A stretch of 64,000 nucleotides of DNA from a virus. Its lineage: Duplodnaviria > Caudoviricetes. Under the pieces are notes generated by a model. That model was not told the DNA's origin. It worked only from the letters and a program-made list of their open reading frames with translations, and did no database searches. The translations under genes and the position numbers were made by a program. The first letter of the stretch is position 1. Each line of letters opens with the position of its first letter. The DNA is taken from positions 32,001-96,000 of IMG/VR virus record IMGVR_UViG_3300031994_000011. One strand, written 5' to 3'. This document shows, one piece after another, positions 3 through 56,166 of the stretch.

Positions 3-3000
3 ACGAATGTTATGTCTGGCGGAGTGGTAGTTAAAGGAACTGGTGTTGGATCGGCAAAAACTATTGATTTTTCTTATGAAGCTGGTGGAGTTCAACATAA
101 CGCTACTCAAACAGCCTCTGGCGCCGGGTCTTTCTCTGAAGGAATAAATACAATTGCTAGCGGTATAGGTGCTCATGCTTAGGGCAATACAAGTGAAGCT
201 TCTGGAATTAACGCACATGCTGAAGGGTCAGGAACAAAAGCAACTAATTATGATACGCATGCTGAAGGATATTATACACAAGCAACTGGTCCATTAAGTC
301 ATGCCGAAGGGAGCACAACCGTTGCTAGTGGTAACGATTCACATGCTGAAGGCAGTATAACTGTTGCTTCTGGCAATCATTCACATGCTGAAGGTGATAG
401 AACAACAGCTTCTGGCGATGTATCACACGCTGAAGGTATTTTTTCAACAGCTTCCGGAAATTACTCTCACGCAGAAAATTATCAGGGTGAAGCTTCTGGA
501 GAAAATTCTCATGCTGAAGGATATATTTCAAAAGCTACTAAAAATTCTGCTCATGCTGAAGGTTATAGAACTGAAGCAAAAGGCAATTATTCTCACTCTG
601 AAGGTTATGAAACTGTAGTTACTGGTGAAGCGGCCCATGCTGAAGGACATCAAGCTTCTGCAAGTAAAGCTAGCGCCCACGCTGAAGGTTATCATACTCA
701 AGCTACTAATAATAATACACATGCTTAGGGATATTTTACTGTTGCTAGTGGATTAAATTCACATGCTTAGGGAGAATTTACAAATGCTGTTGGAAAAGAT
801 AGCCATGCTGAAGGATATTATACTTATGCTAATGGAATAAATAGCCATTCAGAAGGATACGCGACGTGGGTAAATGGAGATTATTCTCATGCTGGTGGAT
901 ATTATACAATTGCTTCGGGTAATAATCAATATGTAAGTGGTAAATATAATATAGAAGATTTAAATAATTTATACGCTGTTATTGTTGGTATTGGTACATA
1001 TAACAATAATAGATTAAATGGTTACACGTTGGATTGGAGCGGTAATGGTTGGTATGCAGGAAAAGTGTCTGTAACTGATACTACTCCTGTACTTAATACT
1101 GATTTAACATCTAAATTATACGTAGATACAATGCTTGCCTTAAAAGCAGATATTCAAGATATACCTGATATTTCTGGCAAAGCAGATAAGGTGTCTAATG
1201 CCACAAGTGGAAACTTTGCTAGCCTTGATGCTAATGGTAATTTAATCGATAGCGGTCATAAACATTCTGATTATCTTACTGAGCATCAAGATATTAGTGG
1301 AAAACAAGATAAACTTACATTTGATGCTATACCTACACAATCAAGTAATAATCCCGTAACAAGCGGCGGAATTAAAAGTGCGCTCAGTGGCCTTGAATGG
1401 TCATTATCTGAAAGAGCTAATATGATTGATGATAGAGTCGATGATTTACAAAATGATATTGCTGGACATACAATGGATATAGCTTTGTTAGAATCTAATA
1501 TAACTAGTCTTGAAACTAATAAACAAGATAAATTAACATTTGATATTACTCCTAGAGCCTATAGCAATAATCCCGTTACTAGCGGTGGTATATATAATGC
1601 AATAACAAATATTAAAACAATGCAAATTCATATTTGCACTAATGAAGAATATAATTCTTAGACTGGTATTCCAATTATTAACTCTCCAGATACAAAAACA
1701 TTTTATTTAGTGCCTGGAGGAGAAGGAAATAATTTATATATTGAATGGGTATATATTAATAATACATGGGAACAATTTGGTAGCGCAACTATAGATTTAA
1801 GTGATTATGCTATAAAAAATGAAATACCTGAAATGATATTTGCCCCTCAGCCACTTATCGTAACTGTTCTTAATGGAGAACGAGCGATTAGATATAATAC
1901 TGGTGAATTATATAATAGTTCTGCTTATAACGCTAGTGATTATGTTGATTTGTCTGGTATATATGCTATTCGTTATAAACGTACAAAAACAACCGCTTCG
2001 TCTTCTGCTATTGGAATTGCATTTTATGATACTTCAAAAACTTATGCTAATTCTGGAGTACAAGTAGTTCTTAATTAGAAAGCTTTTGGTTATGCTGGAT
2101 TCTATGATGTTATTGTACCAGAAGGTGCAGCATATGTACGATTTACAATGATTGCTGATACATAGACTTATGGTGATTTTGAAGCGTATGGGTTAAGAAA
2201 AACTCTTACATTTGATAATACACCAACTGCTAATAGTACAAATCCAGTTACTAGTGGTGGCGTATATAGGGCTATTACAAATATAAAAACAATGGGTATA
2301 CATATTTGTACAAGTTAGGAATATAATTCATAGACGGGTATTCCAACAGTAGCCTCCCCCGATACTAAAACATTCTATCTTGTTCCTGGTGGAGAAGGAA
2401 GTAATTTATATATTGAATGGGTTTATGTTAATAATGCTTGGTAGCAATTTGGTAGCGCGACTATAGATTTAAGCGGCTATGCGCTATTGTCTGATATTCC
2501 TTCAAATGTAAGTGAATTTACAAATGATGCTGGATATCTTACTTAGCATCAAGATATTTCAGGTAAGGCAGATAAATCAGATACAGTTCTTAATACTACA
2601 TTATCTAGAGGAAGAAAAGCTAATACCACTATTGGAGAAGGTTCTTTTGCTTTTGGAATAGATACAACAGCAAGTGGAGCATATTCACATGCATAGGGAA
2701 ATAACACATCGGCTGCCAGAGACTATTCACATGCAGAAGGCTTTAATACAAAAGCTCATGGATATTATTCTCATGCAGAGGGTCATGGCTCAATAGCATC
2801 TAATACTTGTTCTCATGCTGAGGGCTCCGGCACAATAGCATCTGCTATTTGTTCTCATGCTGAAGGCTAGAGTACAACAGCTAGTGAAGCCGGTTCACAT
2901 GCTGAAGGTACAAATACAGTAGCTTCTGGTAATTATTCTCATGCTGAAGGTGGAAGTACAGTAGCATCTGGATTGGTATCACATGCAGAAGGTGGCACCA

Positions 3001-7578: not shown

Positions 7579-7641
7579 TTAACGTATGAAAAAAATAATG
7601 AAACTTTCATTTATAAAAAGTACTTTTAGAATGAAAGGAAC

Positions 7642-12183: not shown

Positions 12184-12188
12184 TTATT

Positions 12189-18517: not shown

Positions 18518-18542
18518 CTTTCTTTTAAATTTATAGTATAAT
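18514..18542 (+). promoter_or_regulatory. Sigma-A promoter directly upstream of the amber suppressor tRNA
   Basis: TTGACT-17-TATAAT. Confidence 0.85.
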
Positions 18543-37341: not shown

Positions 37342-37369
37342 GTTATTGAAAAATAACGAGGAGCTATAT

Positions 37370-39600: not shown

Positions 39601-39613
39601 AGGAGAATAAAAT

Positions 39614-40135
39614 ATGAAAATTTATTTAGCAGGTAGTATATTTTATTATGGAGATGTATTACGAAATACAGAATGGGCTAAAAAAATTCGTGAAGCGATT
39701 CCAAATGTAAACTTATATAGTCCAATTGAAAATACTGAAATTAACGGAGCCGAGGGAAAAAAGAAATTTGCCGGCTCACAAGAGATTGCTAATGGAGATA
39801 ATGTTCGTTTAAACAATACTGATATTTTAGTTGCTTGTATTGATGGAGATATTCTTCCGGCAGGAACTTGCGCCGAAATTGGTAAATTTCATGAAAAAAT
39901 TGAACGTGGTGATCATAAATATATTGTTGGTATTTGTACCGATAATCGCCAAATGTACTTAACTTATAGTGAAGAAAAAAATAAAGGCGGTGCTGCTTCT
40001 CTTGGAGAACAACAATATAGTTATCAGAATCTTTACGTTACTGGTTTAATTAAACAAGGCGGCATTTTAGTATCTAATATTGATGATGCTATTTCTTTTA
40101 TAAAAGAAAAAGAAAAGGAGTATAAAGATGAATAA
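39614..40135 (+). CDS. Nucleoside 2-deoxyribosyltransferase-like protein
   Basis: KIYLAG, YSP, GTCAEIG and NLYVTG motifs. Confidence 0.8.
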   Translation: MKIYLAGSIFYYGDVLRNTEWAKKIREAIPNVNLYSPIENTEINGAEGKKKFAGSQEIANGDNVRLNNTDILVACIDGDILPAGTCAEIGKFHEKIERGDHKYIVGICTDNRQMYLTYSEEKNKGGAASLGEQQYSYQNLYVTGLIKQGGILVSNIDDAISFIKEKEKEYKDE

Positions 40136-41363
40136 AATTATTCATTTCTTCTATTCGCTATATAATCCTTATCCTTGCGGCCGCACTAAAGTTGATAGTT
40201 ATTTATGTTGTAAACGAAAAATGAATAGATGGAATTCTTATCTAACCAAAGATAAAAGAAAATGTTATTGTCGTTTTTGTAATACCATAAAATTTTCAAG
40301 TACTCATCCAATTGATTTTAAACAACCACATAAATGGTAAGGAGGAATATAAAAATGAGTGAAAATTCCTTATGTAATACTTGTGGAAATTTTCATTGTA
40401 TATTTCAATCAGGCATTAACTACGTTAAATGTGACTTTTATATACCTAAAACTTATGAAGAAATATACATAAAATTTATTGATACTGCTGGCAATTTTCA
40501 TTGGATAGGAACTAAAGGTGAACATATAATAAAGCTCTCTTTATAAATATTTAAAAGAATTGGTGGAGAAAAAGATGACAAATCCTAGTAAACCAATTGT
40601 TCAATTAAAAGATAATAAAATTATAGCAATATATAATTCTGCTTATGACGCCGCAAAAATAACTAATTTATCATATAATCATATACAAAAAGCTTGCCAT
40701 AATAAACGTGGTGGCGCAGGCGGCTATAAATGGAGATATGCCACTTTAGAAGAAATTGAATAGTATAATAAAGTTTATTATATAAAAGGAGGAAAAAATC
40801 ATGAATTTTAATCAAATTTCAACTGGCGGACCAGAAGATATGCCAAAATCAACAACTACTTGGACAATAAATAATGATTATTTATTTACGCCTCAAGGAT
40901 GGATTTGTCCTAAATGTGGAAGAGTATATTCACCTACGACAGAAATGTGTTTTTACTGCGGCAATGAAACAAATCAAATTACTGTAAGCGATAAAACTTT
41001 TCCAGATGATTGGTTTATTTATCATGTTACAGACCCTCTAAAAGAACCAGAAGTTCATTTAGATAAAGATTGGAAGAATAAAGAATTTTATGTTGATTAT
41101 GAGTCTCTACCATATTATAATGATGATAATTTTTATAAATTTTATTTAAATCATAATATATAAAGGAGCATAAAATGAGAAATCCCGGACGTATTAAAAT
41201 TATTTGTGAACAGCTTGCTTCTATATGGCAGGAAATCCCTGATTGGCGACTTGCTCAACTTATGAGTAATATATTTGCTACAAAAGATTGCTTCTATATG
41301 GAAGATAAAGAGTTCATTGAGTATATACAAAAATATATAAAAGAGGTAAAATATGGAGAATAA
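40128..41363 (+). other. Run of five small hypothetical ORFs (one NUMOD1-like, about 40575)
   Basis: ORF track 40128, 40334, 40560, 40801 and 41175, mostly with RBS. Confidence 0.55.
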
Positions 41364-42633
41364 TTTAATTTATGGTATTAAAGATAAACCAAAAACAGTA
41401 AAATAGTGGATTCTATATCCACTACAACAAGTCTTTTCTGTATTAACAGCAACATTATTGATTTCAACAGTATGCGGCGCGCCGCTAAGTAGTGGAGTTT
41501 TTGCTGCTGGTATTGGAACATTAGTATATCTTATTTTTACAGGCTTTAATAGCCCAATGTTTGTTTCAAATGCGGGCGCTACTTGCTCAGCAGTTATTGC
41601 CTCGCTAGCCCTAAGTGGCGGAAACACTGTAGCAGTTATAGTTGGTGGAAGTGTAACTGCGCTACTTTATTGTATAATTGCGCTAGGAATAAAGCTAAAA
41701 GGAACTTCTTGGTTGAATAAAATATTTTCAACTTATACTATTGGCGCAATTATTATGGTAATTGGCATTAACTTATCTAAATTTGCAGTATCATATGTTC
41801 AAGTAAATAATGAATATAGCTTAGTTGGCATGTTAGTCGCTATCTTTGTTATGTTTGTAACAGCTATTACAGCACGATATGGAAAAGGTTTTATTAAAAC
41901 AATTCCTTTCCTTATTGGACTTTTAGGTGGATATGTACTATGTCTTGTTCTAGAACTGTTTAACATTCACCTACTAAACTTTTCAGCTTTTGATAATTTA
42001 ACTCTATTCTCAGTTCCACATTTTGCCTTCTATGACGCCAATTTTTCTAACTTTAATTGGATGTTAGTTCCTCAAATCATTGTTATTTGGGTAGCAACTT
42101 CTATTCCAATGCTATTAGAGCATCTTGGCGATCATAAAAGTCTAAGTAGCGTTATTGGAACAGACCTCACTCAAAATCCTGGTATTCATAGAACATTAGT
42201 TTCTGATGGCCTCGCGTCTCTTATTGGATGTATTTTTGGAAAAACTCCCAATACTAGCTATGGAGAAAGTATTAGCTGTACAGCTGTAAGTAGAGTCGGC
42301 AGTAGTTATGTTATTGTTACCGCAGCTGGCATTATGATTTTAGCCTCATTCTTTACTCCTCTTATGGCCTTCTTTGAAAGTATTAGTTCTGTAATCTTTG
42401 GCGGAATTAGTTTTATCGCCTATGGTATGATTGCTTTCTCTGGTCTTAACATGCTTATTAACAGTGGAATAAATTATAAAGATACTTCAAAAGTAATGGT
42501 TGTATGCGCTATTCTCACTACTGGTATAAGCGGCGTTGAGCTACAGCTTGGTCCAATTGTATTCAGTGGAGTTAGTCTAGCAATGCTAGTTGGTTTAATT
42601 ATGGATTTAGTTTTAAATTATAAAAAGAATTGA
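41353..42633 (+). CDS. NCS2 uracil/xanthine permease
   Basis: Multi-TM protein; EHLGD and PNTSYGES signature; TAG at codon 18. Confidence 0.9.
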
Positions 42634-42641
42634 GGTATAAA

Positions 42642-43352
42642 ATGACATATCAAGGTTCAAAGGCTAAATATTCAAAATATATTTGTCCAATATTACAAAA
42701 TTATATTGATAAAAATAATATTGAAACTTTTGTAGATTGCTTTGTTGGCGGGGCAAATATAATCACTGATATTAAATGTAAAAACAGAATTGGTATAGAC
42801 AATAATCAATATTTAATTGCTTTATGGAAATACTTACAAAATAATCCAGATTATGAGTTCCCAGTATATCCATCAAGATAGGATTGGGATAGATGTAAAA
42901 ATAAAATAGAAGAAAAAGATTGGTATATTGGATTAGTATCAATTTTTTGTAGCAATATGGCTGGTGGATTTCCAGCAGGTTATGATAAAATGGGACTTAG
43001 ATATAATGGTAGAATTAAAAATTGTAAAAAAGATTTACCATTTTTAAAAGGTGTTAATTTTATCTGCGATGACTATCATAGTATATCAAACTATACAAAC
43101 TGTTTAATTTATTGTGACCCGCCATATAGCAATACGCATAGATATAATTATCAAAAATTTGATAGTAATGAATTTTGGAATTTTATAAGAGAACAATCTA
43201 GCAAAAATTATATTTTTGTAAGTGAACAAAACGCTCCTGAAGATTTTATTTCTATATGGAGTAAAGATATTGAACACAATATTCGTGGAGCAAAAAGAAT
43301 TGCAACTGAACGTTTATTTGTATTTAATAATGGTCTTATAAAAAATTATTAA
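42642..43352 (+). CDS. DNA adenine methyltransferase (Dam/D12 class)
   Basis: YQGSK, DCFVGGAN and IYCDPPY motifs; one TAG at 42879 joins the two ORF pieces. Confidence 0.85.
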
Positions 43353-43412
43353 GAAATATGCCTATCGCAAGATAGGATTATTTCTTTTTATTAAAGGAGT
43401 GTCTAATAAGTC

Positions 43413-43592
43413 ATGATACAAGAAATAATAGATAGATATTATAATTTTATAAAACATAAAGGATGGACTTATGAAACCGCAGCTGAAAAAATAGAATGTA
43501 GTCGTACACATTTAGGCCGTGTATTTAATGGACGACGTGCTCCATCTATGACATTACTTATGAAAATGGAAGAGGTTATGAAAAATGGATGA
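43413..43592 (+). CDS. XRE-family HTH protein
   Basis: WTYETAAEKIECSRTHLGRVFNGRRAPS. Confidence 0.75.
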   Translation: MIQEIIDRYYNFIKHKGWTYETAAEKIECSRTHLGRVFNGRRAPSMTLLMKMEEVMKNG

Positions 43593-43773
43593 AATTAAAA
43601 CTTATTGTGTATATACACGTTGGCTAGCATTAGAATTACGTAAACAAGGATTTAAAATTATTAAAACAGGTATAAATGAATATCATCCACAATTTGATGT
43701 ATGGTTTTTTGAAGATACCAAAGAATTACAGGCCGCTATATCAGCATTAAATAAACAACGTAAACGCGGCTGA
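43585..43773 (+). CDS. Small hypothetical protein
   Basis: Overlaps the upstream stop codon; LALELRKQGF. Confidence 0.7.
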   Translation: MDEIKTYCVYTRWLALELRKQGFKIIKTGINEYHPQFDVWFFEDTKELQAAISALNKQRKRG

Positions 43774-43787
43774 GGAGGAACCTAAGT

Positions 43788-44165
43788 ATGCCAAATTATT
43801 CAAATCAATTACGTTTAAATTTAACTGAATTAGATAAAATCACACATAAAGAAGGTAATCGCTTTATACAGCCAATTGATTTTAAGTGGGAAGCCGCAGC
43901 TATGCGCAACCTTAATGGAAATGCTTATAAAATATGGCGCTATCTTCTACGATGGTATGGTAAAGATTATTTTTATTATTCTCCTGCCGCTATTCGTAAA
44001 GAATTAGGTTTAGGAGAAAATGGCGCGACATCAGCTAGAAAAGAATTGGAAGCAAAAGGATACATTACTCCTGTAAATAATAAAGAAAATATTTATACTT
44101 TTACTCCTGTTCTTCCGGTTGATTATGAAAATTTAAAAAATAAAAAAGATTTATTTGATGAATAA
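43788..44165 (+). CDS. Winged-HTH protein, candidate replication initiator
   Basis: LNGNAYKIWRYL...LGLG....SARKELEAKGYI; abuts the repeat array. Confidence 0.6.
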   Translation: MPNYSNQLRLNLTELDKITHKEGNRFIQPIDFKWEAAAMRNLNGNAYKIWRYLLRWYGKDYFYYSPAAIRKELGLGENGATSARKELEAKGYITPVNNKENIYTFTPVLPVDYENLKNKKDLFDE

Positions 44166-44350
44166 CCACTTTTTTCGTGGTATTCATTGCCACAAAAATC
44201 GTGGAATTATATCACGAAAATCGTGGCATAGTTCCACGAAAATCGTGGTCTTTCCACGAAAAAAGTGGCAATATCCACGAAAATCGTGTAAGTAATATAA
44301 ATATAATATAAATAGAATAAAAATAATAATATAAATAAAAAATAAAAATA
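44166..44350. repeat. Six 15-bp CCACGAAAATCGTGG repeats plus an AT-rich tract (putative origin)
   Basis: Copies start at 44166, 44190, 44212, 44234, 44254 and 44275; almost pure A/T at 44290-44350. Confidence 0.85.
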
Positions 44351-44432
44351 TGGTCGCGCCGCGACATGAATATTTGACTTAATATAAAAATTACGATATA
44401 ATTATTATAGAAAAAGAAAGGAGATTAAAAAA

Positions 44433-44804
44433 ATGGGGCTTGATTGTAGAATCATAATGGCAAAAAATCGTAAACAAATCGAGATGGAAGATTTCTGGGA
44501 CAAGTGTGCTACCGGTTTTGTACGTGATGAAGATGGCTGTATTGATTTTACCGTACCCTCGGAAGTTGCTTATTGGAGAAAATTTTGGGATTTGTATACA
44601 CCAGTAAGCAATCGTCTTGGACTTGAGAATGGTGAGATGGCTGAAATTAATAAAGATGATCTTTATTTCATTCTTGATATTATTTGTGCCACTCCTGATT
44701 ATTGGGGTAAGTTTGATACAGTTCCTACAATTTGTGAACTAATTTATCATTATAATGAGATTCGTGAACATGGTATGACATTATTCTTTGAAGGAGATTA
44801 TTGA
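44433..44804 (+). CDS. Hypothetical protein
   Basis: MGLD start and EVAYWRK motif. Confidence 0.75.
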   Translation: MGLDCRIIMAKNRKQIEMEDFWDKCATGFVRDEDGCIDFTVPSEVAYWRKFWDLYTPVSNRLGLENGEMAEINKDDLYFILDIICATPDYWGKFDTVPTICELIYHYNEIREHGMTLFFEGDY

Positions 44805-44805
44805 T

Positions 44806-45519
44806 ATGTCAAGAATAATTATCACTGGAGATACTCATGGTTCTGTTGAAATGAATCGTCTGAGTTTTAAAAATTTTCCAGAGGGACACAACCTTACCAA
44901 AAATGATTATGTAATAATTACTGGCGATTTTGGTGCAGTTTGGGATGGAACTAAAACAGATGAGTATTGGCTAGATTTTCTTGAGGATAAGCCTTTTACA
45001 ACTTTGTTTTGTGATGGAAATCATGAAAATTTTAATCTTCTTTATAATTATCCCGAAGAGGAATGGAACGGTGGAAAAACTCATGTAATTAGACCATCAA
45101 TTCGTCATCTTATGAGAGGGCAGATTTTTACAATTGATAATAAGAAGTTTTTTGTAATGGGTGGCGCGACCTCTATTGATAAAGGTTTTAGAAAAGAAAA
45201 TGAAAGTTGGTGGTCGCAAGAAATTCCATCTGTTGAAGAATTTGATGAAGGAATTGTAAATCTTGAAGCTAATAATTATAAAGTAGATTATATTATAACC
45301 CATTGTCTTCCAGATAGTTTACTTGATATTCTTTATTGCGGTTATAATGAACATGATTTACTTACCAATTATCTTGAACATATGGTCGCGCGCACTACTA
45401 CTTTTAAAAATTGGTTTTGCGGACATTATCATACTGATAAAGTAATTCATAATAAATTTTATGTTTGTTATCATGACTTTTATGAAATTACTGATAATAA
45501 AATTATAAAAATTGATTAA
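44806..45519 (+). CDS. Metallophosphoesterase
   Basis: GDTHG, GDFG, DGNHEN, ITH and GHYH motifs. Confidence 0.9.
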   Translation: MSRIIITGDTHGSVEMNRLSFKNFPEGHNLTKNDYVIITGDFGAVWDGTKTDEYWLDFLEDKPFTTLFCDGNHENFNLLYNYPEEEWNGGKTHVIRPSIRHLMRGQIFTIDNKKFFVMGGATSIDKGFRKENESWWSQEIPSVEEFDEGIVNLEANNYKVDYIITHCLPDSLLDILYCGYNEHDLLTNYLEHMVARTTTFKNWFCGHYHTDKVIHNKFYVCYHDFYEITDNKIIKID

Positions 45520-45726
45520 GGAGATAAGTATGAGTAAAACTATTTATGATTCTGTTTGCCCTAAATGCGGCAGCGATAATTGGTATCAATATAGTACTGA
45601 TGAAATTGAATTTTCCTCTGATGGGACAGGTCATTATTATATTTACTGCCATTGTAAAAATTGCGACAATGAATGGAAACAACACTATGAGTTTAAGTAT
45701 ACTATTGAGAGGGAGCGAGATTAATA

Positions 45727-46143
45727 ATGCGTTTGTGGCATAAATATCTTATTTCAGTATTACCTCGTGAGCAACTAGTAAGTCAATGGCGCGAATGCAG
45801 TGCTCTAGCTTCGAATATTCAAAAGAAGGGTAGCCCTAATCATATTTTATGTAATTTTATTTTAAATTATGATTATGATCATTTTATTTCTTATGCTTAT
45901 TATATTAGAGAAGAAATGACTAAACGCGGCTATCGTACAATGAATAGTGTATGGAATAAGATTGTTTCACTTAAAACTGATTATAAACTTTTGTCGCTAA
46001 AAGATATTTATCCAGAAGAAATGAATGATACTTATTGGACTATATGCTATTATAATCTAATGGAAAAATGGTTGCGCGGCGGCATTAAAAATGAAGATTG
46101 GATGAAAATTGATATTGCGGATAGTGAATGGAGAAGTAATTAA
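45727..46143 (+). CDS. Pyrimidine-dimer DNA glycosylase-like protein
   Basis: MRLWH..LI.VLPREQL..QWRE and EMTKRGY motifs. Confidence 0.65.
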   Translation: MRLWHKYLISVLPREQLVSQWRECSALASNIQKKGSPNHILCNFILNYDYDHFISYAYYIREEMTKRGYRTMNSVWNKIVSLKTDYKLLSLKDIYPEEMNDTYWTICYYNLMEKWLRGGIKNEDWMKIDIADSEWRSN

Positions 46144-46153
46144 GGAGTAATAA

Positions 46154-46612
46154 ATGGAAATCTATCTTGGCGGACCTTGCGATAGTGAACATCGTACTCT
46201 AATGGTCCACGTTGCGGAAACACTACGAAATATGGGGCATGAAGTATACTGCCCTTTTGAATTAAAAATTGAAAATGCATGGGATTATTCTCAGGAAGAT
46301 TGGGCGCAGATGGTATTTAAAGCAGACATTTCCGCAATGAACAGCTGTGACTGTGCTATTGTTATTTCCTTAGGTCGCATTTCTAGCGCGGGGACTAATT
46401 GGGAATGTGGTTATCTATATGCTTGTGGAATTCCGGTATATATATTACAGATTACTGGAGCCCCTACTTCTTTAATGACATTCTGTGGCGCAGATTATTT
46501 TGTATCTACAAGCGAGGCCGATTTGACAAATGAATTAGAAACTCTTATACCCCTAATTGAAAACCAAATCATTAATTCTTATAAAAAGGAATGCCTTACT
46601 GTACTAACATAA
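46154..46612 (+). CDS. Second nucleoside 2-deoxyribosyltransferase-like protein
   Basis: IYLGGP, VFKADI.AM..CD and SAGTNWECGY motifs. Confidence 0.8.
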   Translation: MEIYLGGPCDSEHRTLMVHVAETLRNMGHEVYCPFELKIENAWDYSQEDWAQMVFKADISAMNSCDCAIVISLGRISSAGTNWECGYLYACGIPVYILQITGAPTSLMTFCGADYFVSTSEADLTNELETLIPLIENQIINSYKKECLTVLT

Positions 46613-46626
46613 ATATTGGAGAAAGT

Positions 46627-47595
46627 ATGAAGATTAAATATAAATTGATTTATGAATGGGTGAGTGAAGAACCTGATATTCTTGATTGCATGAATGCGAA
46701 TGAATATTCAATTGAAGAGGCAATTAATGATTCAATTCAATGGAATCAAGAGGAATTTGCTGATAGATTGAACAGTTATAGCATGAAAATGTTAGGACTT
46801 GAAGGACAATTTGAATACGAGGTTGTGAATGATAGGTAAAGATAAAGCAATTGAATATCTTGATTGGTATTTTTATGATGATGATGGTAATGTAGATAAA
46901 TATGCAATTCAAAAGTATAATAATTTAAAGAATTATATTGATATTTGTGAAAAATGCTTAATGAAAACCACACATATTGAAGCTGGTTTTCAAGGACATA
47001 ATTTAATTATACAGGAGAGATAAGATGCCTTGTGGTTTTGGTGATAAAGAATGTGCAATTTGTTTTTATGGCTCAGGTTGTATAGCCGCAATGTTAGATG
47101 ACTATTGGCAACCTGCTACGAAAGAACAATTAATTTCTAGATTAAATAATAATGAATATTCTGATTATAGACAATTAATGATCGATACATTATATTCAAA
47201 TTTTAATATAAAATATAATATAGAAAAAACAGACATAAAAAAGGTTTAACTTTTCTTTTAATTTATAATATAATAATAAAAAGAAAGGAATAATTATGCA
47301 GACACATATCATTGAAGAACAAACTTGTGATATGGGCCACGGGAAAGGTGAATATATCTTTTCAAATATGACTTTAGAACAAGTTTTAGATTGGTTTGAA
47401 CAAAACTTACATGACTGGGGAACAATTATAATCCAATTTAAAGATGGAGATATTTTAAGAAAATTTGATTATAATTTATATAATGATTCACAATTCTATC
47501 ATCATTTAAGTTGGGAATATAATTTATTGGTAGAAAAAATAGAATTCTATTATTGTTTTATGAATAAGGACATTATTATTTATTTAAATAAATAA
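46627..47595 (+). other. Four small hypothetical ORFs
   Basis: ORF track 46591, 46829, 47025 and 47296 with RBS. Confidence 0.55.
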
Positions 47596-47667
47596 GTCAA
47601 ATCAATAAGATTTGACTTTCTTTTTAATTTATGATATAATTAAATATAAAGAAAAGGAGGCGATAAA

Positions 47668-49533
47668 GTGGCTTATGATGCTAATTCAATTCAGGTAAGA
47701 GATTTTCGTACTGCCGCACGAACTACACCTGGTATGTATATTGGCGCGGATGGGCAAGATGCAATGTTTAATTGTTTTCTAGAAATTCTTAATAATGCTT
47801 GTGATGAAGCTATTATGGGGCGAGGAAACGAAATTACTGTAGAAGTAAATGATAATGATATTAAGATTTCTGATAAAGGAGCGGGAGTTCCCCATGGAAA
47901 AAATAAAGATACAGAAGAAGTACTCATCGAAATATACACTTCTGCTCATTCTTCTGGGAAATTTGATTCAACTAATTATAAAAGAGTTCGTGGTATGCAT
48001 GGTATTGGGTCCAGTACGGTGTGCGTTTGCTCGGAAATTTTTGAAGTATGGAGCAAACGAGATGGGGCAGAATGGCACCTCTTATTCAAAGATGGCATAC
48101 CGCAATCTAAAACGGCGGATAGAATTCGATCTACAAAAGAAACAGGTACAACAGTGTATTTTAAACCTGATAAAACCATATTCCATCTAAATGATGAAAC
48201 GCCATCTTTTGATAAAGGACGAATTAAAAATGAATTACGTTTAACTAGTTATTTTATTCCAAATGTTACTTTTATCTATAAAACGAATGAACAAGAAGAA
48301 AGGTTCATATCTAAAAATGGGCTAAAAGATTTTGCCGCTGATAATATCACAAAGCCGCTTCATAAACAATATATTTATGGAACAAAAACATTTGATGGCG
48401 ATATTGATATTGAAGTATTTGCACAATGGACTACAGGACGTGAAAAATGTTATGTATTTTCTAATGGCGCTTTAAATAGTGGTGGTGGTACTCCTGTAAC
48501 AGGAATGAAAGCGGCTTTTACGCGCACTATTAATGATCAAGCAAAAGAAAATTTTGATAGTGAAATGATTCGTAAAGGACTAGTCACAATAATTAACATT
48601 AAACACCCACATCCAATATATCAAAATCAAGTTAAAGATAAAATTCAAAATCAAGAACTTCGTGGTTATACGCAGACAACCTTTACAGAAGCGATTAAAG
48701 ATTGGATTATAAAAAATCAAAATGATTTTAATAAAATTATAAATATACTTATTACTGATAAAAAAGCAGAAGCCGCCGCGGAAAAAGCACGCCAAGGTGT
48801 TCTTAACTTTGAGAAAAAAGAAACAGAGCATAAAAAGCAAAAAATAACTTCTTCTGATAAGTTTAAAGATTGCGAAAAGCATGGGCAAGATTCAATGTTA
48901 ATTATATGTGAGGGTAATTCAGCACTTGGCGGCCTCATGCCCGCACGAGACGTCAATAAGGAAGCTCTGTATGCTGTGCGTGGTAAGGTAAAAAATCTAT
49001 TAAAGCATCCACTTGATGAATGTCTTGAAAATCAAGAAGTTTCTGATATCATCATGGCACTTGGATGCGGCATTCAAGAAAAGTATAATAGTAAAAAACT
49101 TAATTATGGTAAAGTAGCTATCGCAACAGATGGCGACGTCGATGGTTTCTCAATTATGTGCCTTATCTCAACGCTATTTTATGTGTTGATGCCAAAATTT
49201 ATTGAAGAAGGCAGACTATGCTGGCTTCGTGCACCACTTTATAAAATTGAAAAAGGTGGACAAAAATTATTCGCCTATAATGATGAAGAGCTAGAAAAAA
49301 TTCGGCAAGATCGCACGAATTGGGAAATTACTCGCGCAAAGGGTCTTGGTGAACTTAATGCTGATGATATGGAGTGTTCTATGCTTCATCCTACAGAACG
49401 AAGGCTTGAAGTATTAACCATTCACGATGCTGAAGCTGCGGCAGCAAGTATTATGATGTTAATGGGGCCAGAGGTTGAAGGTAGAAGAAAATTCCTATTT
49501 GAGAATGTGGATTTTAATATATTAAATAATTAA
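47668..49533 (+). CDS. gyrB: Type IIA topoisomerase B subunit (GyrB/ParE)
   Basis: PGMYIG, EILNNACDE, HSSGKF, GMHGIG, EGNSA, DGDVDG and KGLGE motifs. Confidence 0.93.
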   Translation: MAYDANSIQVRDFRTAARTTPGMYIGADGQDAMFNCFLEILNNACDEAIMGRGNEITVEVNDNDIKISDKGAGVPHGKNKDTEEVLIEIYTSAHSSGKFDSTNYKRVRGMHGIGSSTVCVCSEIFEVWSKRDGAEWHLLFKDGIPQSKTADRIRSTKETGTTVYFKPDKTIFHLNDETPSFDKGRIKNELRLTSYFIPNVTFIYKTNEQEERFISKNGLKDFAADNITKPLHKQYIYGTKTFDGDIDIEVFAQWTTGREKCYVFSNGALNSGGGTPVTGMKAAFTRTINDQAKENFDSEMIRKGLVTIINIKHPHPIYQNQVKDKIQNQELRGYTQTTFTEAIKDWIIKNQNDFNKIINILITDKKAEAAAEKARQGVLNFEKKETEHKKQKITSSDKFKDCEKHGQDSMLIICEGNSALGGLMPARDVNKEALYAVRGKVKNLLKHPLDECLENQEVSDIIMALGCGIQEKYNSKKLNYGKVAIATDGDVDGFSIMCLISTLFYVLMPKFIEEGRLCWLRAPLYKIEKGGQKLFAYNDEELEKIRQDRTNWEITRAKGLGELNADDMECSMLHPTERRLEVLTIHDAEAAAASIMMLMGPEVEGRRKFLFENVDFNILNN

Positions 49534-49534
49534 A

Positions 49535-49813
49535 ATGATAATTTATAGATATGAAAAAGAAGATGGCGGAGGGCCATATTTTACACCTGATGGGCATTCA
49601 AGGACGTATACAGATATTTATTTTAATGATGATATATTATGTGGAGCTGAATCAATTGATAATTTAAATAAATGGTTTATAGAAAGAAATGCTACTAAAT
49701 TAATTCAAGATTGTAAAATTGTCAAATATGAAGGAGAACTAATTCATAAATTTATTCATAGTGGAGAGGCAGTGATTAGAAAATCAACTGCTAAACAATT
49801 AACTTCTCCTTAA
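49535..49813 (+). CDS. Hypothetical protein inserted after gyrB
   Basis: IYRYE...GGPY; flanked by a duplicated gyrB 3' end. Confidence 0.65.
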   Translation: MIIYRYEKEDGGGPYFTPDGHSRTYTDIYFNDDILCGAESIDNLNKWFIERNATKLIQDCKIVKYEGELIHKFIHSGEAVIRKSTAKQLTSP

Positions 49814-49891
49814 AATTATGTATAAGTTTATAGATAATTATAATTTTTGAGAATGTAGATTTTAGTATTTTAAATAGATAAGGAGAATAGT

Positions 49892-50071
49892 ATGAATAAT
49901 AATTCGCGTAATCGTGGTATTGGATTTATGGGCTTGCTTACAATAGCATTTATTGTATTAAAACTATGTCATGTTATAGAATGGTCTTGGCTTTGGGTAT
50001 TGTCTCCACTATGGATTTCATTTGTAATTATTATGATGATTGCTATTTGGCTTGCGAATAAATTTCAATAA
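49892..50071 (+). CDS. Small membrane protein
   Basis: GIGFMGLLTIAFIVLKL..VIEWSWLWVLSPLWI; RBS. Confidence 0.75.
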   Translation: MNNNSRNRGIGFMGLLTIAFIVLKLCHVIEWSWLWVLSPLWISFVIIMMIAIWLANKFQ

Positions 50072-50162
50072 ATTTAAATTGGGATAGGGCTTGGACGTTA
50101 GAAATAAAAGAAAATTTCTTATTTAAAATGTTGATTTAATATCTTAAATAATTGAGGTAAAT

Positions 50163-51001
50163 ATGAATATTGAGAATGCAAAAATTACAAATACACGTAT
50201 TTCTATGGCTGACCATGGTTGCTTAACTTTTGATTTAACACTTGAAGGTGCCGGTTGGGGTTGTAATTACGGTGGATATTGTATTGGTAATGGATACTTA
50301 GGTGCTAAAGAATTTACAGCAAGTTCAGGTAATGGACTCGTGGCTATAATGAAGATTATGGATACAGTCGGTGTAGAGTGTTGGGAAGATTTAAAAGGTA
50401 AATATGTTCGATGCAAGATAAATGATTGGGGAGGAACTATTGATGAAATTGGTAATTTAATAGAAAATGAATGGTTTAATATTCGTGAATTTTTTTCTAA
50501 TAATAATTAACAATAATTAAAATTTCTGATATATAATAAGAGGTATAAAAATGGATAATAAATATAAAATTATGGATATTTTATTAGAAGAATTTAAATA
50601 TATTTACTGTGATAGTTGTAGACTTCAAGACAGTGAAAATTGTGAAGGATGCTATAGAAAATATATTAATTGGTCTTTGTCATCAGAAACAGCAGCGAAT
50701 ATTGCTGATAAAATTATAAATGTATTTGAAGATAATAAACCATAAATTTTGAATGGATGATAATATGAATGAAAAAGAATTTATAGCAGCTATAAATGAG
50801 ATTATTCTTAGTTCAACAGCTAATGGTGGTGATCCCGGTGGTCCTTATATGACGGAGCAAGAATGGGCACAAAAAAGTATAGAAAAATTATTATATTTAT
50901 TAAATTTAAATAATAAATACCATGTTGAATTAGTTAGAAATTTAAGATATGATCTCACAACTTGGATAGATCCAATTCCGCAAATAGTTGACAATAATTA
51001 A
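50163..51001 (+). other. Three hypothetical ORFs (50163, 50551, 50753)
   Basis: ORF track. Confidence 0.55.
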
Positions 51002-51038
51002 ATTTTATGTTATAATATAAAATGGGAGATAAGAAGAT

Positions 51039-51800
51039 ATGGCACAAAAAATTGATATGACGGGTTGGATATTAAGTGAACATGGTGTCCCAGACAGTAT
51101 TCTCACCGTCCTTGAAGAAGATAAAGAATACCGTATTTTGCATAATATTAAATTAACTGAAGCATATTGGAAATGTCAATGCAAATGTGGAAATATAATC
51201 AGTGCACGAGGCTCTTCACTAAGAAGAGGAGATATTTTATCATGCGGATGTATTCAAAAGCAGCGTACATCTGCTGCCAGAAGATATAATTTAGTTGGAC
51301 AACGCTTTGGAAAATTATTAGTATTAGAATATAGTAAAACTTATACAAGACCAAATGGAAAAAGTGGAGATGCCATTTGGAAATGCCGATGTGATTGTGG
51401 CAATATAACATATGTAGTAACTAATAGTTTAATGAGCGGTCAAACAACAAGTTGTGGTTGTAATGTTTCATCCGCAGAAGAATTAATTAGAACCATATTA
51501 ATAAAACATAATATTCCATTTGAAGTTCAAAAACGGTATAATGATTGTAGAGATAAAAAGCCATTACCTTTTGATTTTTATATAAATAATAATTTTTTAT
51601 TGGAATATGATGGGGAACAACATTATAAAGAATGGAATCGTGGAGAATCAACTCTGGCAGATAGACAAAAACATGATAATATTAAAAATAAATATGCAAA
51701 AGATAATCATATTCCTTTAAAACGTATACCATATTGGGATTATAATAAAATAACATTTGAAACTATTATGGATGATACGTTTTTATTAAAGGAGAAATAA
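51039..51800 (+). CDS. Putative free-standing homing endonuclease
   Basis: Two WKCxCxCG...SCGC repeats and a C-terminal PFDFY...LEYDGEQH (Vsr/DUF559-like) domain. Confidence 0.75.
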   Translation: MAQKIDMTGWILSEHGVPDSILTVLEEDKEYRILHNIKLTEAYWKCQCKCGNIISARGSSLRRGDILSCGCIQKQRTSAARRYNLVGQRFGKLLVLEYSKTYTRPNGKSGDAIWKCRCDCGNITYVVTNSLMSGQTTSCGCNVSSAEELIRTILIKHNIPFEVQKRYNDCRDKKPLPFDFYINNNFLLEYDGEQHYKEWNRGESTLADRQKHDNIKNKYAKDNHIPLKRIPYWDYNKITFETIMDDTFLLKEK

Positions 51801-51802
51801 TA

Positions 51803-54181
51803 ATGCAAAAGAACGTAGATTTTCAAAATACATTAGAGGCATCGTTTCTTGCCTACGCTGCTTCGGTCGCGCAGGAACGAGCAATTCCCGATGTAAGAGA
51901 TATGCTAAAGATTGGTCTTCGTCAAGGCTTATATGCTCAATATACAAACAAATTAACTTATAAAGATAAATTTCAAAAGGCGCAAAAAAGTGTCGCAGCG
52001 GCTATGACTCAATCATATGTTCATGGTGACGCAGCGATGTATGATACTTTTATTCGCGCGGCAAGACCATGGTCCTATCGTTATCCTCTTGAAGCAGTTC
52101 AGGGTAACTATGGTAATCCTACATCACCTGATAGTCATGCTCAAGCACGTTATGTTGAAATGAAAGCCGCGGAAATATCTAGTATATTTTTTGATGGCTT
52201 AAAGAAAAATGCTATTGGCGACGAATATTATTCAAATTATGATGATACTGAAATGATTCCAAGTGTCTTCCCTTCAATTGGCTTTTGGAATATAGTTAAT
52301 GGATGCTCTGGTATTGCGGTTGCTTTAGCCACTTCAGTACCAGCTTTTAATCTTAAAGAAGTAAATAATGCGTTAATTACTTTAATTAAAAATCCAAATG
52401 CTACTTTTGATGAAATATATTGTATTCCGGATTTTCCTTGCGGCGGTACAATTATAAATCCTAGTGCTGTAAAAGAATCGTTGAAAATTGGTAAAGGCGA
52501 ATCTATTAGATTAAGAGCAACATTAAAATATATTCCTGATCAAAACATGATTCAAGCAACCGAACTTCCTCATAGTGTCTTTACTAATACTGTAATTGAT
52601 CAACTCGCTGAATTAGTAAATAACAATGAAAGTTATGGTATTGAAAGAGTAGTAGACCATACAAAAAAAGAAGCAGATATTCGTATTTATCTTTCTAAAG
52701 GCGTAAATCCAAAACGAATGATTGAAAAACTTTATAAAGATACCTCATTAGAATATTGGTATTCTGTAAATATGGTGCTTCTTGACCAAGGAAGATTCCC
52801 TAAAATTTTTGGATGGAAGACAGCTTGTGAAGCTTATATTACTCATATTCGTCTTTGTAAACGTCGTGAAATTCAATTTGATTTAGACAAAGCTCTTGCT
52901 AGAAAAAATATTGTAGAGGGCTTGATTAAAGCATATTCTATTATTGATGAAATAATTGCTTTAATTAAATCTTCAGCTAATCCAGCAGAAGCATCTGTTA
53001 AATTGATTTCTGAATATGCCTTTAATGAAGAACAAGTAAAAGCAATTCTTGCTATGAAACTTTCTTCATTAACTAAACTTGATATTGTAAAACTTAATAA
53101 TGAACTGGAAGAACTTAATGAAAAAATATCCTGGTTCCAATACTTATTAAATAACCCCTCTGCTCTAGATGAAGAACTAATAAAGATTTTAAAAGATGTA
53201 GCTGAAAAATTTGGAGACGAGAGAAGAACAAAAGTATTGAATTTAATTGATAGTAATTCTGAAGACTTGGAAGAAGTTTCAGAAGAAGAAGTTGGTATTT
53301 TACTTTTTGATAATAATATGTTGCGCGTGGTAAAAAGAGATGATATTCAGGGCGCAAAGCGGGGAAGAAAAGGAACTAATATTAAACCTCCTAAAGGCGC
53401 AAATCTAATAAATACCTTGTATACAACTACACTTGGAACTGTTGCTGCTTTCACAAATGCGGGCCGTATGTATAATTTTAATCTCTCGGATATTGATTGT
53501 GATAAAGATTATTCAATTTATGAACTAATCAATGTTCAAGGAGATGAAAAAATTATACTTCTCACTGATATGACTTCTTTTAATGCTTATCATAATTTAA
53601 TTACAGTAAGTAAAAATGGATACATTAAAAAAAGTAAAATCAGTGAATATAATACAAAAATAAAGAAAGGCGTAGTAGCAGTAAAACTGGAAGATAAAGA
53701 TAGTCTTGTGGGAGTATTTCTATCTAGAAATGAAAAAGATAGAATGTTTATTGCCGGTTCTGGCGGGAACTATAATTTCTATAAAGTAGAAGAAATTTCT
53801 GCTACTGGTCGCGCGACTAAAGGCGTAAAAGCAATTAAATTAAATACGGGAGAATTTATTCAGTCAGTAACTATAGTAAAAGAAGATATTCCTTACAGGG
53901 GAATTTTAACTATTACTTCGTCTGGTAAAGGTAAAATAACTTCAATTGAAGATTTTCCAGAAACAAGTCGTGGAATAAAAGGACCACAAGTTATGGCAAC
54001 TAAAGAAGAAAAACTTTCTGTGGTCTATGCCGTTCCTGATACACAAGAAAAAATCTTTATTTCTACTAATAATAAAGCCGTATTATTGAATATAGAATCA
54101 ATTCCAGTTCAAAATAGAATTACAACTGGAGTACGCATTATAGATGCGAGGGACAGTAACACAACTATTGAGATTATGTAA
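51803..54181 (+). CDS. gyrA: Type IIA topoisomerase A subunit (GyrA/ParC)
   Basis: RAIPDVRD.LK, VHGD, QGNYG, catalytic ARY, GIAV, PDFP and a C-terminal pinwheel. Confidence 0.93.
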   Translation: MQKNVDFQNTLEASFLAYAASVAQERAIPDVRDMLKIGLRQGLYAQYTNKLTYKDKFQKAQKSVAAAMTQSYVHGDAAMYDTFIRAARPWSYRYPLEAVQGNYGNPTSPDSHAQARYVEMKAAEISSIFFDGLKKNAIGDEYYSNYDDTEMIPSVFPSIGFWNIVNGCSGIAVALATSVPAFNLKEVNNALITLIKNPNATFDEIYCIPDFPCGGTIINPSAVKESLKIGKGESIRLRATLKYIPDQNMIQATELPHSVFTNTVIDQLAELVNNNESYGIERVVDHTKKEADIRIYLSKGVNPKRMIEKLYKDTSLEYWYSVNMVLLDQGRFPKIFGWKTACEAYITHIRLCKRREIQFDLDKALARKNIVEGLIKAYSIIDEIIALIKSSANPAEASVKLISEYAFNEEQVKAILAMKLSSLTKLDIVKLNNELEELNEKISWFQYLLNNPSALDEELIKILKDVAEKFGDERRTKVLNLIDSNSEDLEEVSEEEVGILLFDNNMLRVVKRDDIQGAKRGRKGTNIKPPKGANLINTLYTTTLGTVAAFTNAGRMYNFNLSDIDCDKDYSIYELINVQGDEKIILLTDMTSFNAYHNLITVSKNGYIKKSKISEYNTKIKKGVVAVKLEDKDSLVGVFLSRNEKDRMFIAGSGGNYNFYKVEEISATGRATKGVKAIKLNTGEFIQSVTIVKEDIPYRGILTITSSGKGKITSIEDFPETSRGIKGPQVMATKEEKLSVVYAVPDTQEKIFISTNNKAVLLNIESIPVQNRITTGVRIIDARDSNTTIEIM

Positions 54182-54193
54182 AGGAGAATAAAA

Positions 54194-54655
54194 ATGGATA
54201 AACATTATCTAAAACTTTTTACTTAGCTAGCTCATACTATTGAAGTTCTTGCTGAACAGGTGATTTCTATTAACCATGATAAGAAAGATGAAAAAGGTGA
54301 AGAGACTGCTACTATCATGCGCGATGATTATCAGCAACTTTATGATAGAATGCGTCAGGCTGATTTTGACCCGGTTACACTTTCTAAGCGAGACTATGCT
54401 CGTTTCCTTGTCGGCGCGATTATAGTAGTTCAGCAAATTGAAACTCGTATTGAGAATGAAAAGAAAGCTATTTCTGGCTATAAAATTGATTTAATTCCTA
54501 AACTTGAAAGAATTATAAATGAAATTAAAGAAGGGGAAGAAGATAAATTACCAGCTTTAATTTCAGAGCTATTTGAAATCAAGCCAGAAGAAAAGACAGA
54601 AACTAATTCTTCTAATGAAGAAAAAGTTAAAGAAAAAGAAAAGTCTAATAATTGA
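54194..54655 (+). CDS. Hypothetical protein (TAG at codon 11)
   Basis: AGGAG RBS before ATG 54194, in frame with ORF 54260. Confidence 0.75.
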
Positions 54656-54841
54656 CTAAAAGCAAAAATTACGCTATAATATAATTGTTGAAAGGGAGAA
54701 AAAGTCCTTCAACCTCGGTAAAAAGAAAAAATTATTATTTGACTTTTTACGAAAAATACATTATAATAGATATATAAGAAGGCGGGAGACTGACTTCTTA
54801 ATATAAAAAAATATTTTAAAAAGAAAAAGGAGATTATTACT

Positions 54842-55159
54842 ATGACTGTTAATAGCGAACTCGTACTAAACTATCTAAAGAAAGAATTTGGCAAGGAACA
54901 TACAAAGCAGGAAATCGCCGAGACTCTAGGCATTTCTCTCCCCGCCGTAACCGGTAGTGTTAATTCTTTAAGGACTAAGGGTTATGTCTCTGAGCGTGTT
55001 GAAGAAGTTGAACTTGAACCCGCAACTGAAACCCGCAAGGCTAAGATGAAGGTTATTCGTTATGAAACTCTAACTGAAGCTGGTCTATCCTATGATCCTC
55101 AGGTTGAGGCTGAGCAGAAGGCTGCTGAAAAGGCCGCGAAGAAGGCTGCTAAGGCTTGA
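54842..55159 (+). CDS. Winged-HTH DNA-binding protein
   Basis: KQEIAETLGIS...VNSLRTKGYV...LTEAG. Confidence 0.75.
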   Translation: MTVNSELVLNYLKKEFGKEHTKQEIAETLGISLPAVTGSVNSLRTKGYVSERVEEVELEPATETRKAKMKVIRYETLTEAGLSYDPQVEAEQKAAEKAAKKAAKA

Positions 55160-55269
55160 TGGAAGGCTTGATGGAAGGCAGTCCGAAAGGGCTGCTTTTT
55201 ATTTGACTAATAATAAAATTTGAAATATAATAATATTGTAAAAGATAAAAAATAAAGGAGAAAAAAATT

Positions 55270-56166
55270 ATGAAGAATATTCTTGAACAGGCAATGAATA
55301 AAGTAAATGTAGTAGGGAAACTTCTTTAGGCGGCTGTATTTGATGGTTCTCTGAAGGATGGAAGAAAATATCTAAGAGCTAATCTTACTATTAAAGTGAC
55401 GCAGACTTATGGTGGACGTGAAGAAGTAAGTGAAATTCCTGTAAGCATGTTTGCTGCACAGTATACTAATGATGGTCGTCCCAATCCGGGTTATAGTCAG
55501 ATTCAGGACCTTACTAATATGAAGAGCGCGCAGACCGTAGGTTATGATAATGCTGATGTAGTTAGAATTAGCGGCGCAAATCTTCGTGAAAATAACTTTG
55601 TTTCAAAGAGTGGTCAGCTAATTGATGGTTGGCAGATTAACACTTCTTTTATCAACCTTGGTAAAGGTGACGGTGTAGCTTCTTTCGCTGCTGATATTTT
55701 TATTATGGATATGAGTCGTGAAACTGACCGTGATGGTGATGAAACTGGACGTCTTATTATTAAGGGCGGCCTAGTCCAGTATGGTGGACGCCTTGATGTT
55801 GTGGAATTTGTTGTTGAAAATCCTGAAGCAGTTGATTTTGTTGAACGTAATTGGAATATTAATGATACTGTTGGAGTTAAGGGTCGTATTCGTGTAAGCT
55901 CTAGAGAAGAAAAAGCGTCTGGTGCTTCTAGTTCTTGGGGTGAAGATGTCCCTGATATGACTACTAGAACTATTAGGGAACTAGTTATTACGACAGGTAA
56001 TGACGAAGGCAAGGAAGAAGAATTTGCTTATGATCCTGCTGATATTAAGAAAGCTTTTAATGTAAGAAAGGCAAATATTGAGCAGCTACAGATTGATGCT
56101 AAGAACGCAAGTGCTAAGAAACCTGCAGCTCCGGCAGCTACTGCCTCTAAGTATAGCTGGGAGTAA
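55270..56166 (+). CDS. Probable single-stranded DNA-binding protein (TAG at codon 20)
   Basis: NKVNVVGKL OB-fold-like start, flexible tail ending in W-E, upstream of a Sak4-like gene. Confidence 0.65.

Follow-up and report, generated by a model that had tools for sequence, protein, structure and literature searches.

The closest described counterparts of the phage genome analysed here are the code-15 phages of the gut (crAss-like, Lak, Garnet/Topaz/Agate and phAss-1), in which late and structural genes use TAG for Gln while the early genes follow the standard code, genes end in TAA or TGA, and the phage supplies its own tRNA(CUA) along with tRNA genes that contain inserts (10.1101/2021.08.26.457843; PMC9523058; PMC10607447). 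Borges et al. reported that phages whose code differs from that of the host show only TAG-to-Gln and TGA-to-Trp changes, and a survey of 180 phage suppressor tRNAs predicted the isotypes Gln, Trp, Ile and Tyr, with no Glu among them. The current view is that host-opposed recoding in phages is restricted to these two outcomes because the glutaminyl- and tryptophanyl-tRNA synthetases (GlnRS and TrpRS) are intrinsically easy to hijack. Here we present an analysis of IMG/VR record IMGVR_UViG_3300031994_000011, a phage of the Caudoviricetes, and in particular of a 64,000-nucleotide (nt) stretch of it, bases 32001-96000, which we refer to as the window. This phage shares the features listed above and differs from the code-15 phages in two respects: its TAG appears to mean Glu rather than Gln, and the body of its suppressor tRNA is tRNA-Glu-like where theirs are Gln-like. 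The best explanation of the data, which we hold with considerable confidence, is late-gene amber recoding in which UAG means Glu.

Outside phages, UAG = Glu has been reported for ciliates and Blastocrithidia: in peritrich ciliates (NCBI table 30), in Blastocrithidia (table 31) and in a ciliate with UAA = Lys and UAG = Glu (10.1101/2022.12.16.520718), in each case with a cognate CUA-type tRNA. These codes are cellular and genome-wide and reassign UAA as well, whereas in the present phage only UAG is reassigned, TAA and TGA are stops, and the change covers part of a virus genome and is probably imposed on a standard-code bacterial host. In the literature searched we found no report of TAG = Glu in phages, where amber recoding is described as yielding Gln only. 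A preliminary description of the window had proposed from its sequence that TAG stands for Glu and had called this a candidate new phage genetic code, a wording that we consider fair and whose claim to novelty held up in that literature. On comparative evidence, Glu would be a third, and new, outcome of stop-codon recoding in phages. Among laboratory systems, E. coli amber suppressors include supE tRNA-Gln and synthetic tRNA-Glu(CUA); in these a CUA tRNA competes with release factor 1 (RF1), as that of the phage would, and the residue inserted is set by identity elements.

The contig is 171,958 bp long (34% G+C) and carries a 127-bp direct terminal repeat, so that we take it as a complete phage genome. 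The standard code fragments the left 40 kb of the window, and long frames are restored when TAG is read through. An open reading frame (ORF) set for the whole genome, in which TAA and TGA are the sole stops by construction and TAG is read through, comprises 228 ORFs over 91% of the DNA (166 ending, as constructed, in TAA and 61 in TGA) and holds 755 in-frame TAGs, among them 195 in a single frame of 6244 codons and 96 in another of 2545 codons. This number of in-frame TAGs is far beyond chance, and about half of the genes, including those for virion proteins, the fibre and several enzymes, use TAG as a sense codon. Its distribution is sharply divided: 53 TAG-bearing genes average 26.8 TAGs per 1000 codons, and 72 genes of at least 100 codons (16,942 codons) have none. 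The TAGs lie almost entirely in late and virion genes and the TAG-free genes mostly in the replication and early blocks. Within the window, plus-strand ORFs of the region 39295..64000 contain five in-frame TAGs as against hundreds in the late genes, and their ends are identical under both codes; the named genes of this block are read in the standard code. Together with a phage-encoded tRNA(CUA), these in-frame TAGs and the nearly TAG-free, presumably early, block complete the hallmarks of late-gene amber recoding.

That the TAGs are untranslated, and mark decayed genes or a faulty assembly, is an explanation to which we attach practically no weight. Nothing recommends it beyond the mere presence of the stop codons, and it is already contradicted by 755 TAGs in frames that stay open for up to 6244 codons, by orthologues that are 57-73% identical across the TAGs, and by a genome that is complete with terminal repeats. 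A limited role of TAG as a stop is conceivable in about five to seven genes, where no more than 0-14 codons separate it from the closing TAA or TGA. In those genes only, given the position of TAG near the gene end and the second stop behind it, TAG may act as a terminator early in infection. The tightest such arrangements, with TAG in the last 0-5 codons and TAA or TGA soon after, are found on the minus strand at genome positions 7342-7869, 13486-13884 and 153637-153993, and at window positions 31905-32255; in these, TAG may once have been the terminator, the second stop serving as a back-up.

The meaning of TAG was determined by comparison with 44 related IMG/VR loci, 23 of them found through the portal protein (57-71% identity) and 21 through PhoH, which covers the 30-43 kb block of the window. 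Every pair of orthologous ORFs was aligned and tabulated codon against codon, and an empirical substitution table was derived from the same alignments. Across the 23 portal-region relatives, TAG of this phage stands opposite GAA 778 times, GAG 165, GAT 155 and CAA 67 times, while TAG of the relatives stands opposite CAA (210), CAG (73) and GAA (52) of this phage. Six of the relatives (L011, L013, L015, L016, L017 and L030) have no in-frame TAG. Against these six, the 469 cells opposite phage TAG comprise 287 E, 74 D and 23 Q, and the log-likelihood places Glu ahead of Asp by 476 nats and ahead of Gln by 731. For 16 other relatives the same procedure, applied to their own TAGs, gives 280 Q, 50 K and 45 E, with Gln ahead of Glu by 765; the method can evidently tell E from Q. 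The PhoH block agrees, E being the commonest partner of phage TAG in 20 of its 21 loci.

Since cells from related sequences are not independent, counts were also made per site, for sites covered by at least five relatives, a column being called conserved when at least 80% of its residues agree. Columns dominated by Q were the outcome that the preliminary description had named as incompatible with its proposal. Of the 124 TAG sites, however, 80 have E as their most frequent residue, 14 have D and 6 have Q, and the conserved columns are E in 49 of 51 cases and Q in the other 2. True GAA codons of the phage behave likewise (E commonest at 317 of 449 sites and in 157 of 179 conserved columns), and its CAA codons do not (Q commonest at 118 of 193 sites and in 71 of 80 conserved columns). 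TAG is like GAA/GAG and unlike CAA/CAG in this respect, and the substitution profiles are correspondingly close, with E 0.61, D 0.16 and Q 0.05 for TAG and E 0.66, D 0.09 and Q 0.04 for GAA/GAG.

Codon usage points in the same direction. In the TAG-bearing genes GAA and GAG together amount to 53.2 per 1000 codons, and the addition of TAG brings the total to 80.0, compared with 74.2 for Glu in TAG-free genes; TAG would then be about one third of the Glu codons in the genes that use it. Were TAG counted as Gln, Gln would rise from 36 to 63 per 1000, compared with 29 in TAG-free genes. Such a near doubling of late-gene Gln content is one of several results contradicting the proposal that the phage uses ordinary code 15, the Glu signal being a by-product of GAG-to-TAG mutation at tolerant sites. 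That proposal draws on Gln being the only amber meaning reported for phages and on GAG and TAG being one transversion apart. Yet it fits the alignments 731 nats worse than Glu does; the codons opposite TAG are mostly GAA rather than GAG, in keeping with general Glu usage; the conserved columns are nearly all Glu; and the TAG columns of the 16 Gln-reading relatives, treated in the same way, come out as Gln. We regard the chance that code 15 applies here as negligible. For TAG = Glu in this phage the support is as strong as comparative data permit.

The alignments with orthologues are independent of the examples on which the preliminary description had relied, and these proved accurate as well: all 21 coordinates that we checked for cited codons and their contexts, drawn from every kind of example other than the PIN motif, are exact. 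Most instructive are the internal repeats of the fibre-like gene. Its 14-residue repeat occurs in 25 copies, of which 20 read HAEG, four HA[TAG]G (at 180, 726, 768 and 2694) and one HAGG. In each of three internal duplications of the same gene, WEQF at 1770 and W[TAG]QF at 2442, LTEHQDISG at 1281 and 2544, and KYNIEDLNN at 954 and 3132, a GAA or GAG of one copy corresponds to TAG in the other. The only pairing of TAG with TGG is that of 3228 with 1050, as had been stated. Further downstream, a tandem (E/TAG)VEPAQ repeat is present at 7513, 7531 and 7549, and GL[TAG]IY at 8146 corresponds to GLEVY at 10304. More divergent paralogues were also considered as evidence and set aside, a whole-proteome self-BLAST being noisy (opposite TAG: D 12, E 6, Q 4) and only the close repeats of the fibre gene informative.

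The TAGs also occupy positions in conserved and catalytic motifs, several of which had been pointed out before and were found as described: GEAG[TAG]VAD at 30837 and K[TAG]LGD at 30906 in the MazG-like protein, VS[TAG]GQN at 38982 in the PhoH-like ATPase, and LD[TAG]REIYWI at 27018 in the GIY-YIG endonuclease. In comparisons with solved structures, the PhoH motif aligns to the Walker B sequence LDEAQN of PDB 3b85, and K[TAG]LGD of MazG to EEIGD of PDB 2gta, the latter in a weak match (E 0.063). ClpP has IS[TAG]NLV[TAG] aligned to IDDNVAN of solved ClpP structures. A terminase-like (TerL) ORF outside the window has GILE[TAG] at its Walker B motif; the TerL comparison with solved structures gave no match.

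The suppressor tRNA (Table 1) has a G1.U72 first pair, A73, a four-nucleotide variable loop (UAAC) and no encoded CCA, and its D stem includes U11-A24 and U13.G22. In E. coli the identity set for glutamyl-tRNA synthetase (GluRS) comprises U11-A24 and U13-G22 with A46 and no nucleotide 47, while tRNA-Gln is characterized by U1-A72 and G73. The four-nucleotide variable loop is also present in the tRNA-Trp of a gut genome, and the anticodon elements of tRNA-Glu are necessarily absent from a CUA suppressor. A BLAST search of 401 Clostridia genomes returned tRNA-Glu for all six of the strongest matches that lie on tRNA genes. With the anticodon arm left out of the comparison, the suppressor shares 68-71% identity with these tRNA-Glu genes, and none of about 50 other tRNAs of the same loci exceeds 58%; the corresponding values for Trp and Gln are 54% and 52.5%. 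Origin of the suppressor body from tRNA-Glu is well supported by these sequence comparisons. A tRNA-Trp-like isotype, suggested by its top rank in a comparison with two gut genomes, was superseded by the search of the 401 Clostridia genomes. The phage has separate tRNA-Gln(UUG)-like genes, which do carry U1-A72.

A homologue of the suppressor, 84% identical, was found in the record that holds one of the related loci (L129, discussed below). The two do not differ in the acceptor stem or D arm, and the substitutions between them in the anticodon and T stems are compensatory, which argues that this is a functional tRNA under selection. No homologue was matched in the records of four other relatives searched, nor did ARAGORN call any similar tRNA in G002-G005, and comparison with phage and E. 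coli collections gave no useful match. When the exact tRNA pattern was searched in IMG/VR and metagenomes, only a chance match of 61% G+C and a 429-kb phage contig of 24% G+C were recovered. This contig (IMGVR_UViG_3300025030_000039; loci L066 and L181-L200) encodes a short CUA tRNA that agrees with the suppressor in its anticodon arm and variable loop, as well as an intron-containing UUA tRNA, and it has no TerL Pfam match. It was considered as a further recoded phage and ruled out, for its coding density is equal with the standard code (0.834 versus 0.832), so that it carries suppressor tRNAs without recoding. It resembles in this the Zeta crAss-like and other phages in which suppressor tRNAs are carried but unused (PMC12386605). 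In the phage described here, unlike those, the suppressor would be needed, as 755 in-frame TAGs depend on it.

Some features of the tRNA genes are recorded here in their own right. A T loop of the sequence UCCGA, with C in place of the universal U at position 55, is present in the suppressor, in a tRNA-Gly(UCC) at 24393-24466 and in a split tRNA-Gln at 18760-18901, and also in the homologous suppressor of the second phage. Five tRNA genes (18647-18756, 18760-18901, 23951-24100, 28815-28932 and 30100-30233) have inserts of 27-75 nt in the anticodon loop; the ARAGORN intron search assigns them to Lys, Gln(UUG), Gln, Ala and Leu, and in the Rfam search four of them match as over-long tRNAs. Inserts of this kind have been reported for recoded jumbo phages (PMC13037316). 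A further tRNA-like gene at 25724-25796, with U1-A72, a 6-nt anticodon loop containing UUG and an Rfam score of only 32 bits, may be a degenerate or unusual tRNA-Gln. Upstream, the gene of a DUF2828/DUF7788 protein (16946-18517) ends about 50 nt before the suppressor tRNA.

The wider family shows that this phage is not alone. By the same procedure, TAG is assigned to Gln in 16 of the 23 portal-region loci and to Glu in one, L022 (IMGVR_UViG_3300021399_000154), in which E is the commonest residue at 29 of 44 TAG columns and in 16 of 19 conserved ones. Locus L129 (IMGVR_UViG_3300021399_000301), from the same sample, also gives E, on fewer sites, and L022 and L129 are two contigs of one second TAG = Glu phage. 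Among Glu positions, the present phage and L022 have TAG in common more often than expected (odds ratio 2.9, p 0.015). The alignments indicate that the meaning of UAG differs within a single phage family, in which it is read as stop, Gln or Glu. Of the Gln-reading relatives, G004 has a distinct CUA tRNA of 86 nt with a long variable region, U1-A72 and G73, for which no informative bacterial match was found. In two others, G003 (IMGVR_UViG_3300031992_000015, complete) and G002 (IMGVR_UViG_3300031994_000024), no tRNA(CUA) could be recognised in any part of the contig.

For the charging of the suppressor the phage must rely on its host, because its genome has no GluRS/GlnRS catalytic domain (PF00749); a release-factor domain (PF00472) is likewise absent from it. 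As to the host, the portal protein matches 83 known-phage records, and those among the matches listed are all phages of Bacillota hosts, including the amber-recoded phAss-1; the portals of phAss-1 and of Enterococcus phages are distantly related to that of this phage (28% identity). The xanthine/uracil permease at 41353-42633 has its nearest bacterial relatives in uncultured Bacillota at 34-36% identity, too weak for the naming of a host. In the five Clostridia genomes with the best-matching tRNA-Glu, the GlnRS domain PF03950 is absent from all and GatB present in all, which implies that these bacteria make Gln-tRNA by the indirect route, through GluRS and GatCAB.

It might be supposed that the host itself reads UAG as Glu, so that the phage merely follows the code of its host and its tRNA only boosts supply. 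The code-25 phages of Absconditabacteria are a precedent, and the body of the phage tRNA is closest to a Clostridial tRNA-Glu. The division of the genome into 72 TAG-free genes and others with 26.8 TAGs per 1000 codons, however, is the pattern described for code-switching phages in standard-code hosts; close relatives of the phage read TAG as Gln or not at all; and in none of the 30 best-match loci of the 401 Clostridia genomes was a CUA tRNA called by ARAGORN. A recoded host is in our judgement unlikely.

For UAG = Glu imposed by the phage on a standard-code host we propose the following pathway. The suppressor tRNA would be transcribed early by the host RNA polymerase, from a host-type promoter in a TAG-poor block; a sigma-70-type promoter-like site (Table 1) lies 28 nt 5' of the tRNA, in a block with few in-frame TAGs. 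Host GluRS would then charge the suppressor with Glu. The U1-A72 pair has a role in the recognition of tRNA-Gln by GatCAB, and the suppressor has G1.U72 and A73 instead, from which we infer that it escapes GatCAB after being charged by GluRS. Passed over by the host GatCAB, the Glu-tRNA(CUA) would reach the ribosome and compete with RF1, and the TAG-rich late genes would be completed only after the suppressor has accumulated. In a host without GlnRS every tRNA-Gln would first be charged with Glu, and recognition by GatCAB would then decide between Gln and Glu; a decision of this kind would explain both TAG meanings in one phage family.

Several points weigh against this account. The comparative data report the residue selected for at TAG sites, not the residue inserted there, and the share of Asp is higher at TAG columns than at true Glu codons (16% versus 9%). 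The anticodon arm of the suppressor differs hardly at all from those of tRNA-Trp(CCA) and of the CUA tRNA of another phage, and in whole-sequence comparison with two gut Bacillota genomes and the tRNAs of relatives its similarity is ambiguous, tRNA-Trp ranking first, a ranking that we attribute to the anticodon arm common to CUA and CCA tRNAs. Bacterial GluRS normally reads the anticodon, which makes efficient charging of a CUA tRNA hard to account for. The genomes in which GlnRS and GatB were sought were picked by tRNA similarity alone. Finally, a quick tree of four core proteins places both TAG = Glu phages on long branches in a clade with Gln-reading and standard-code relatives, a topology that leaves room for the two being sisters, with a single origin of TAG = Glu, and also for separate origins.

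The minority of TAG sites that align to Gln, the 6 of 124 and the 2 conserved columns mentioned above, also count against an exclusive Glu reading and raise the matter of ambiguity, that is, of a suppressor partly amidated or mischarged so that TAG sites carry a mixture of Glu and Gln. The first pair, G1.U72, is weak and matches neither tRNA-Glu (G-C) nor tRNA-Gln (U-A), and in the presence of GlnRS amber suppressors often receive Gln by mischarging. In E. coli this is the tendency of CUA suppressors built on other bodies; the likely type of host here has no GlnRS, which would remove that route. Moreover, the share of Q at TAG columns (4.9%) is on a par with its share at true Glu codons (4.1%), and TAG is found where enzymes have catalytic carboxylates, so that a Gln there would be expected to abolish activity. 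We consider a mixed meaning improbable, even more so than a recoded host, and retain Glu as the reading of UAG.

If correct, a TAG = Glu phage with a suppressor of the tRNA-Glu type would contradict the view that only Gln and Trp can be reached in host-opposed recoding, and would suggest that the switch is made in the indirect Gln pathway. A broader hypothesis, which we put forward tentatively and at rather less than even odds, is that members of a single family of Bacillota phages have either arrived independently at their meanings of UAG (stop, Gln or Glu) or switched between them, by way of the indirect Gln-tRNA route of their hosts; GluRS would charge every suitable CUA suppressor with Glu, GatCAB recognition of the first pair and D loop would be the sole decider between Gln and Glu, a few nucleotides in one tRNA would amount to a new code, and public databases would contain TAG = Glu phages wrongly translated under code 15. 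Table 15 is the one that gene callers and virus databases apply to amber-recoded phages. In the present lineage it would place Gln at hundreds of Glu positions, catalytic residues included, and so corrupt homology searches, structure predictions and proteomic databases. The family may be regarded as a natural experiment in the gain and change of codon meaning, its members being 57-73% identical in protein sequence and including standard, Gln and Glu readers of TAG. The tRNA itself would be a naturally occurring amber suppressor that inserts Glu, of possible use in Gram-positive hosts.

Table 1. Features of the window (positions are window coordinates; TAG counts refer to in-frame codons)
Feature	Position	Strand	Remarks
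Fibre-like gene, 2028 codons	3..5327 (part within window)	+	16 TAGs in window, 22 in whole gene; 14-residue SHAEG-type repeats
Late TAG-bearing run, part 1	5279-7294, 7309-7578, 7702-7983, 7996-8493, 8516-9130	+	ORFs close only with TAG readthrough
Late TAG-bearing run, part 2	9144-10130, 10100-10351, 10366-12183, 12180-12446, 12446-12847	+	ORFs close only with TAG readthrough
Glycosyltransferase family 2	9144-10130	+	Pfam GT2
Sigma-70-type promoter-like site	18514..18542	+	TTGACT, 17 nt, TATAAT; 11/12 consensus positions; consensus match only
Suppressor tRNA, anticodon CUA	18570..18642	+	ARAGORN; Rfam tRNA, 55.3 bits
GIY-YIG / NUMOD1 homing endonuclease	26751..27659	+	Pfam; 4 TAGs
MazG-like pyrophosphohydrolase	30729..31052	+	Pfam PF03819; 5 TAGs, 2 in acidic metal-binding motifs
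799-codon gene, no family match	33156..35555	+	23 TAGs; orthologues in 12 related loci; TAG columns mostly E (PhoH-block loci)
ClpP-like protease	37346..37981	+	Pfam PF00574; 3 TAGs
PhoH-like ATPase	37944..39212	+	Pfam PF02562; 17 TAGs, one at the Walker B glutamate
Replication/early block, almost TAG-free	39295..64000	+	Xanthine/uracil permease, GyrB, GyrA, AAA_24, DnaB-like helicase, RecJ-like nuclease

A ligase is also among the genes of the replication block, and a gene similar to adenylosuccinate synthetase is located at 22168-23244; like the permease and the DUF2828/DUF7788 gene, it is unusual. Among the tRNA genes, positions 25281-25386 match the Rfam DUF3800-I RNA (RF02969) with 57.3 bits, above the gathering score of 44.2.

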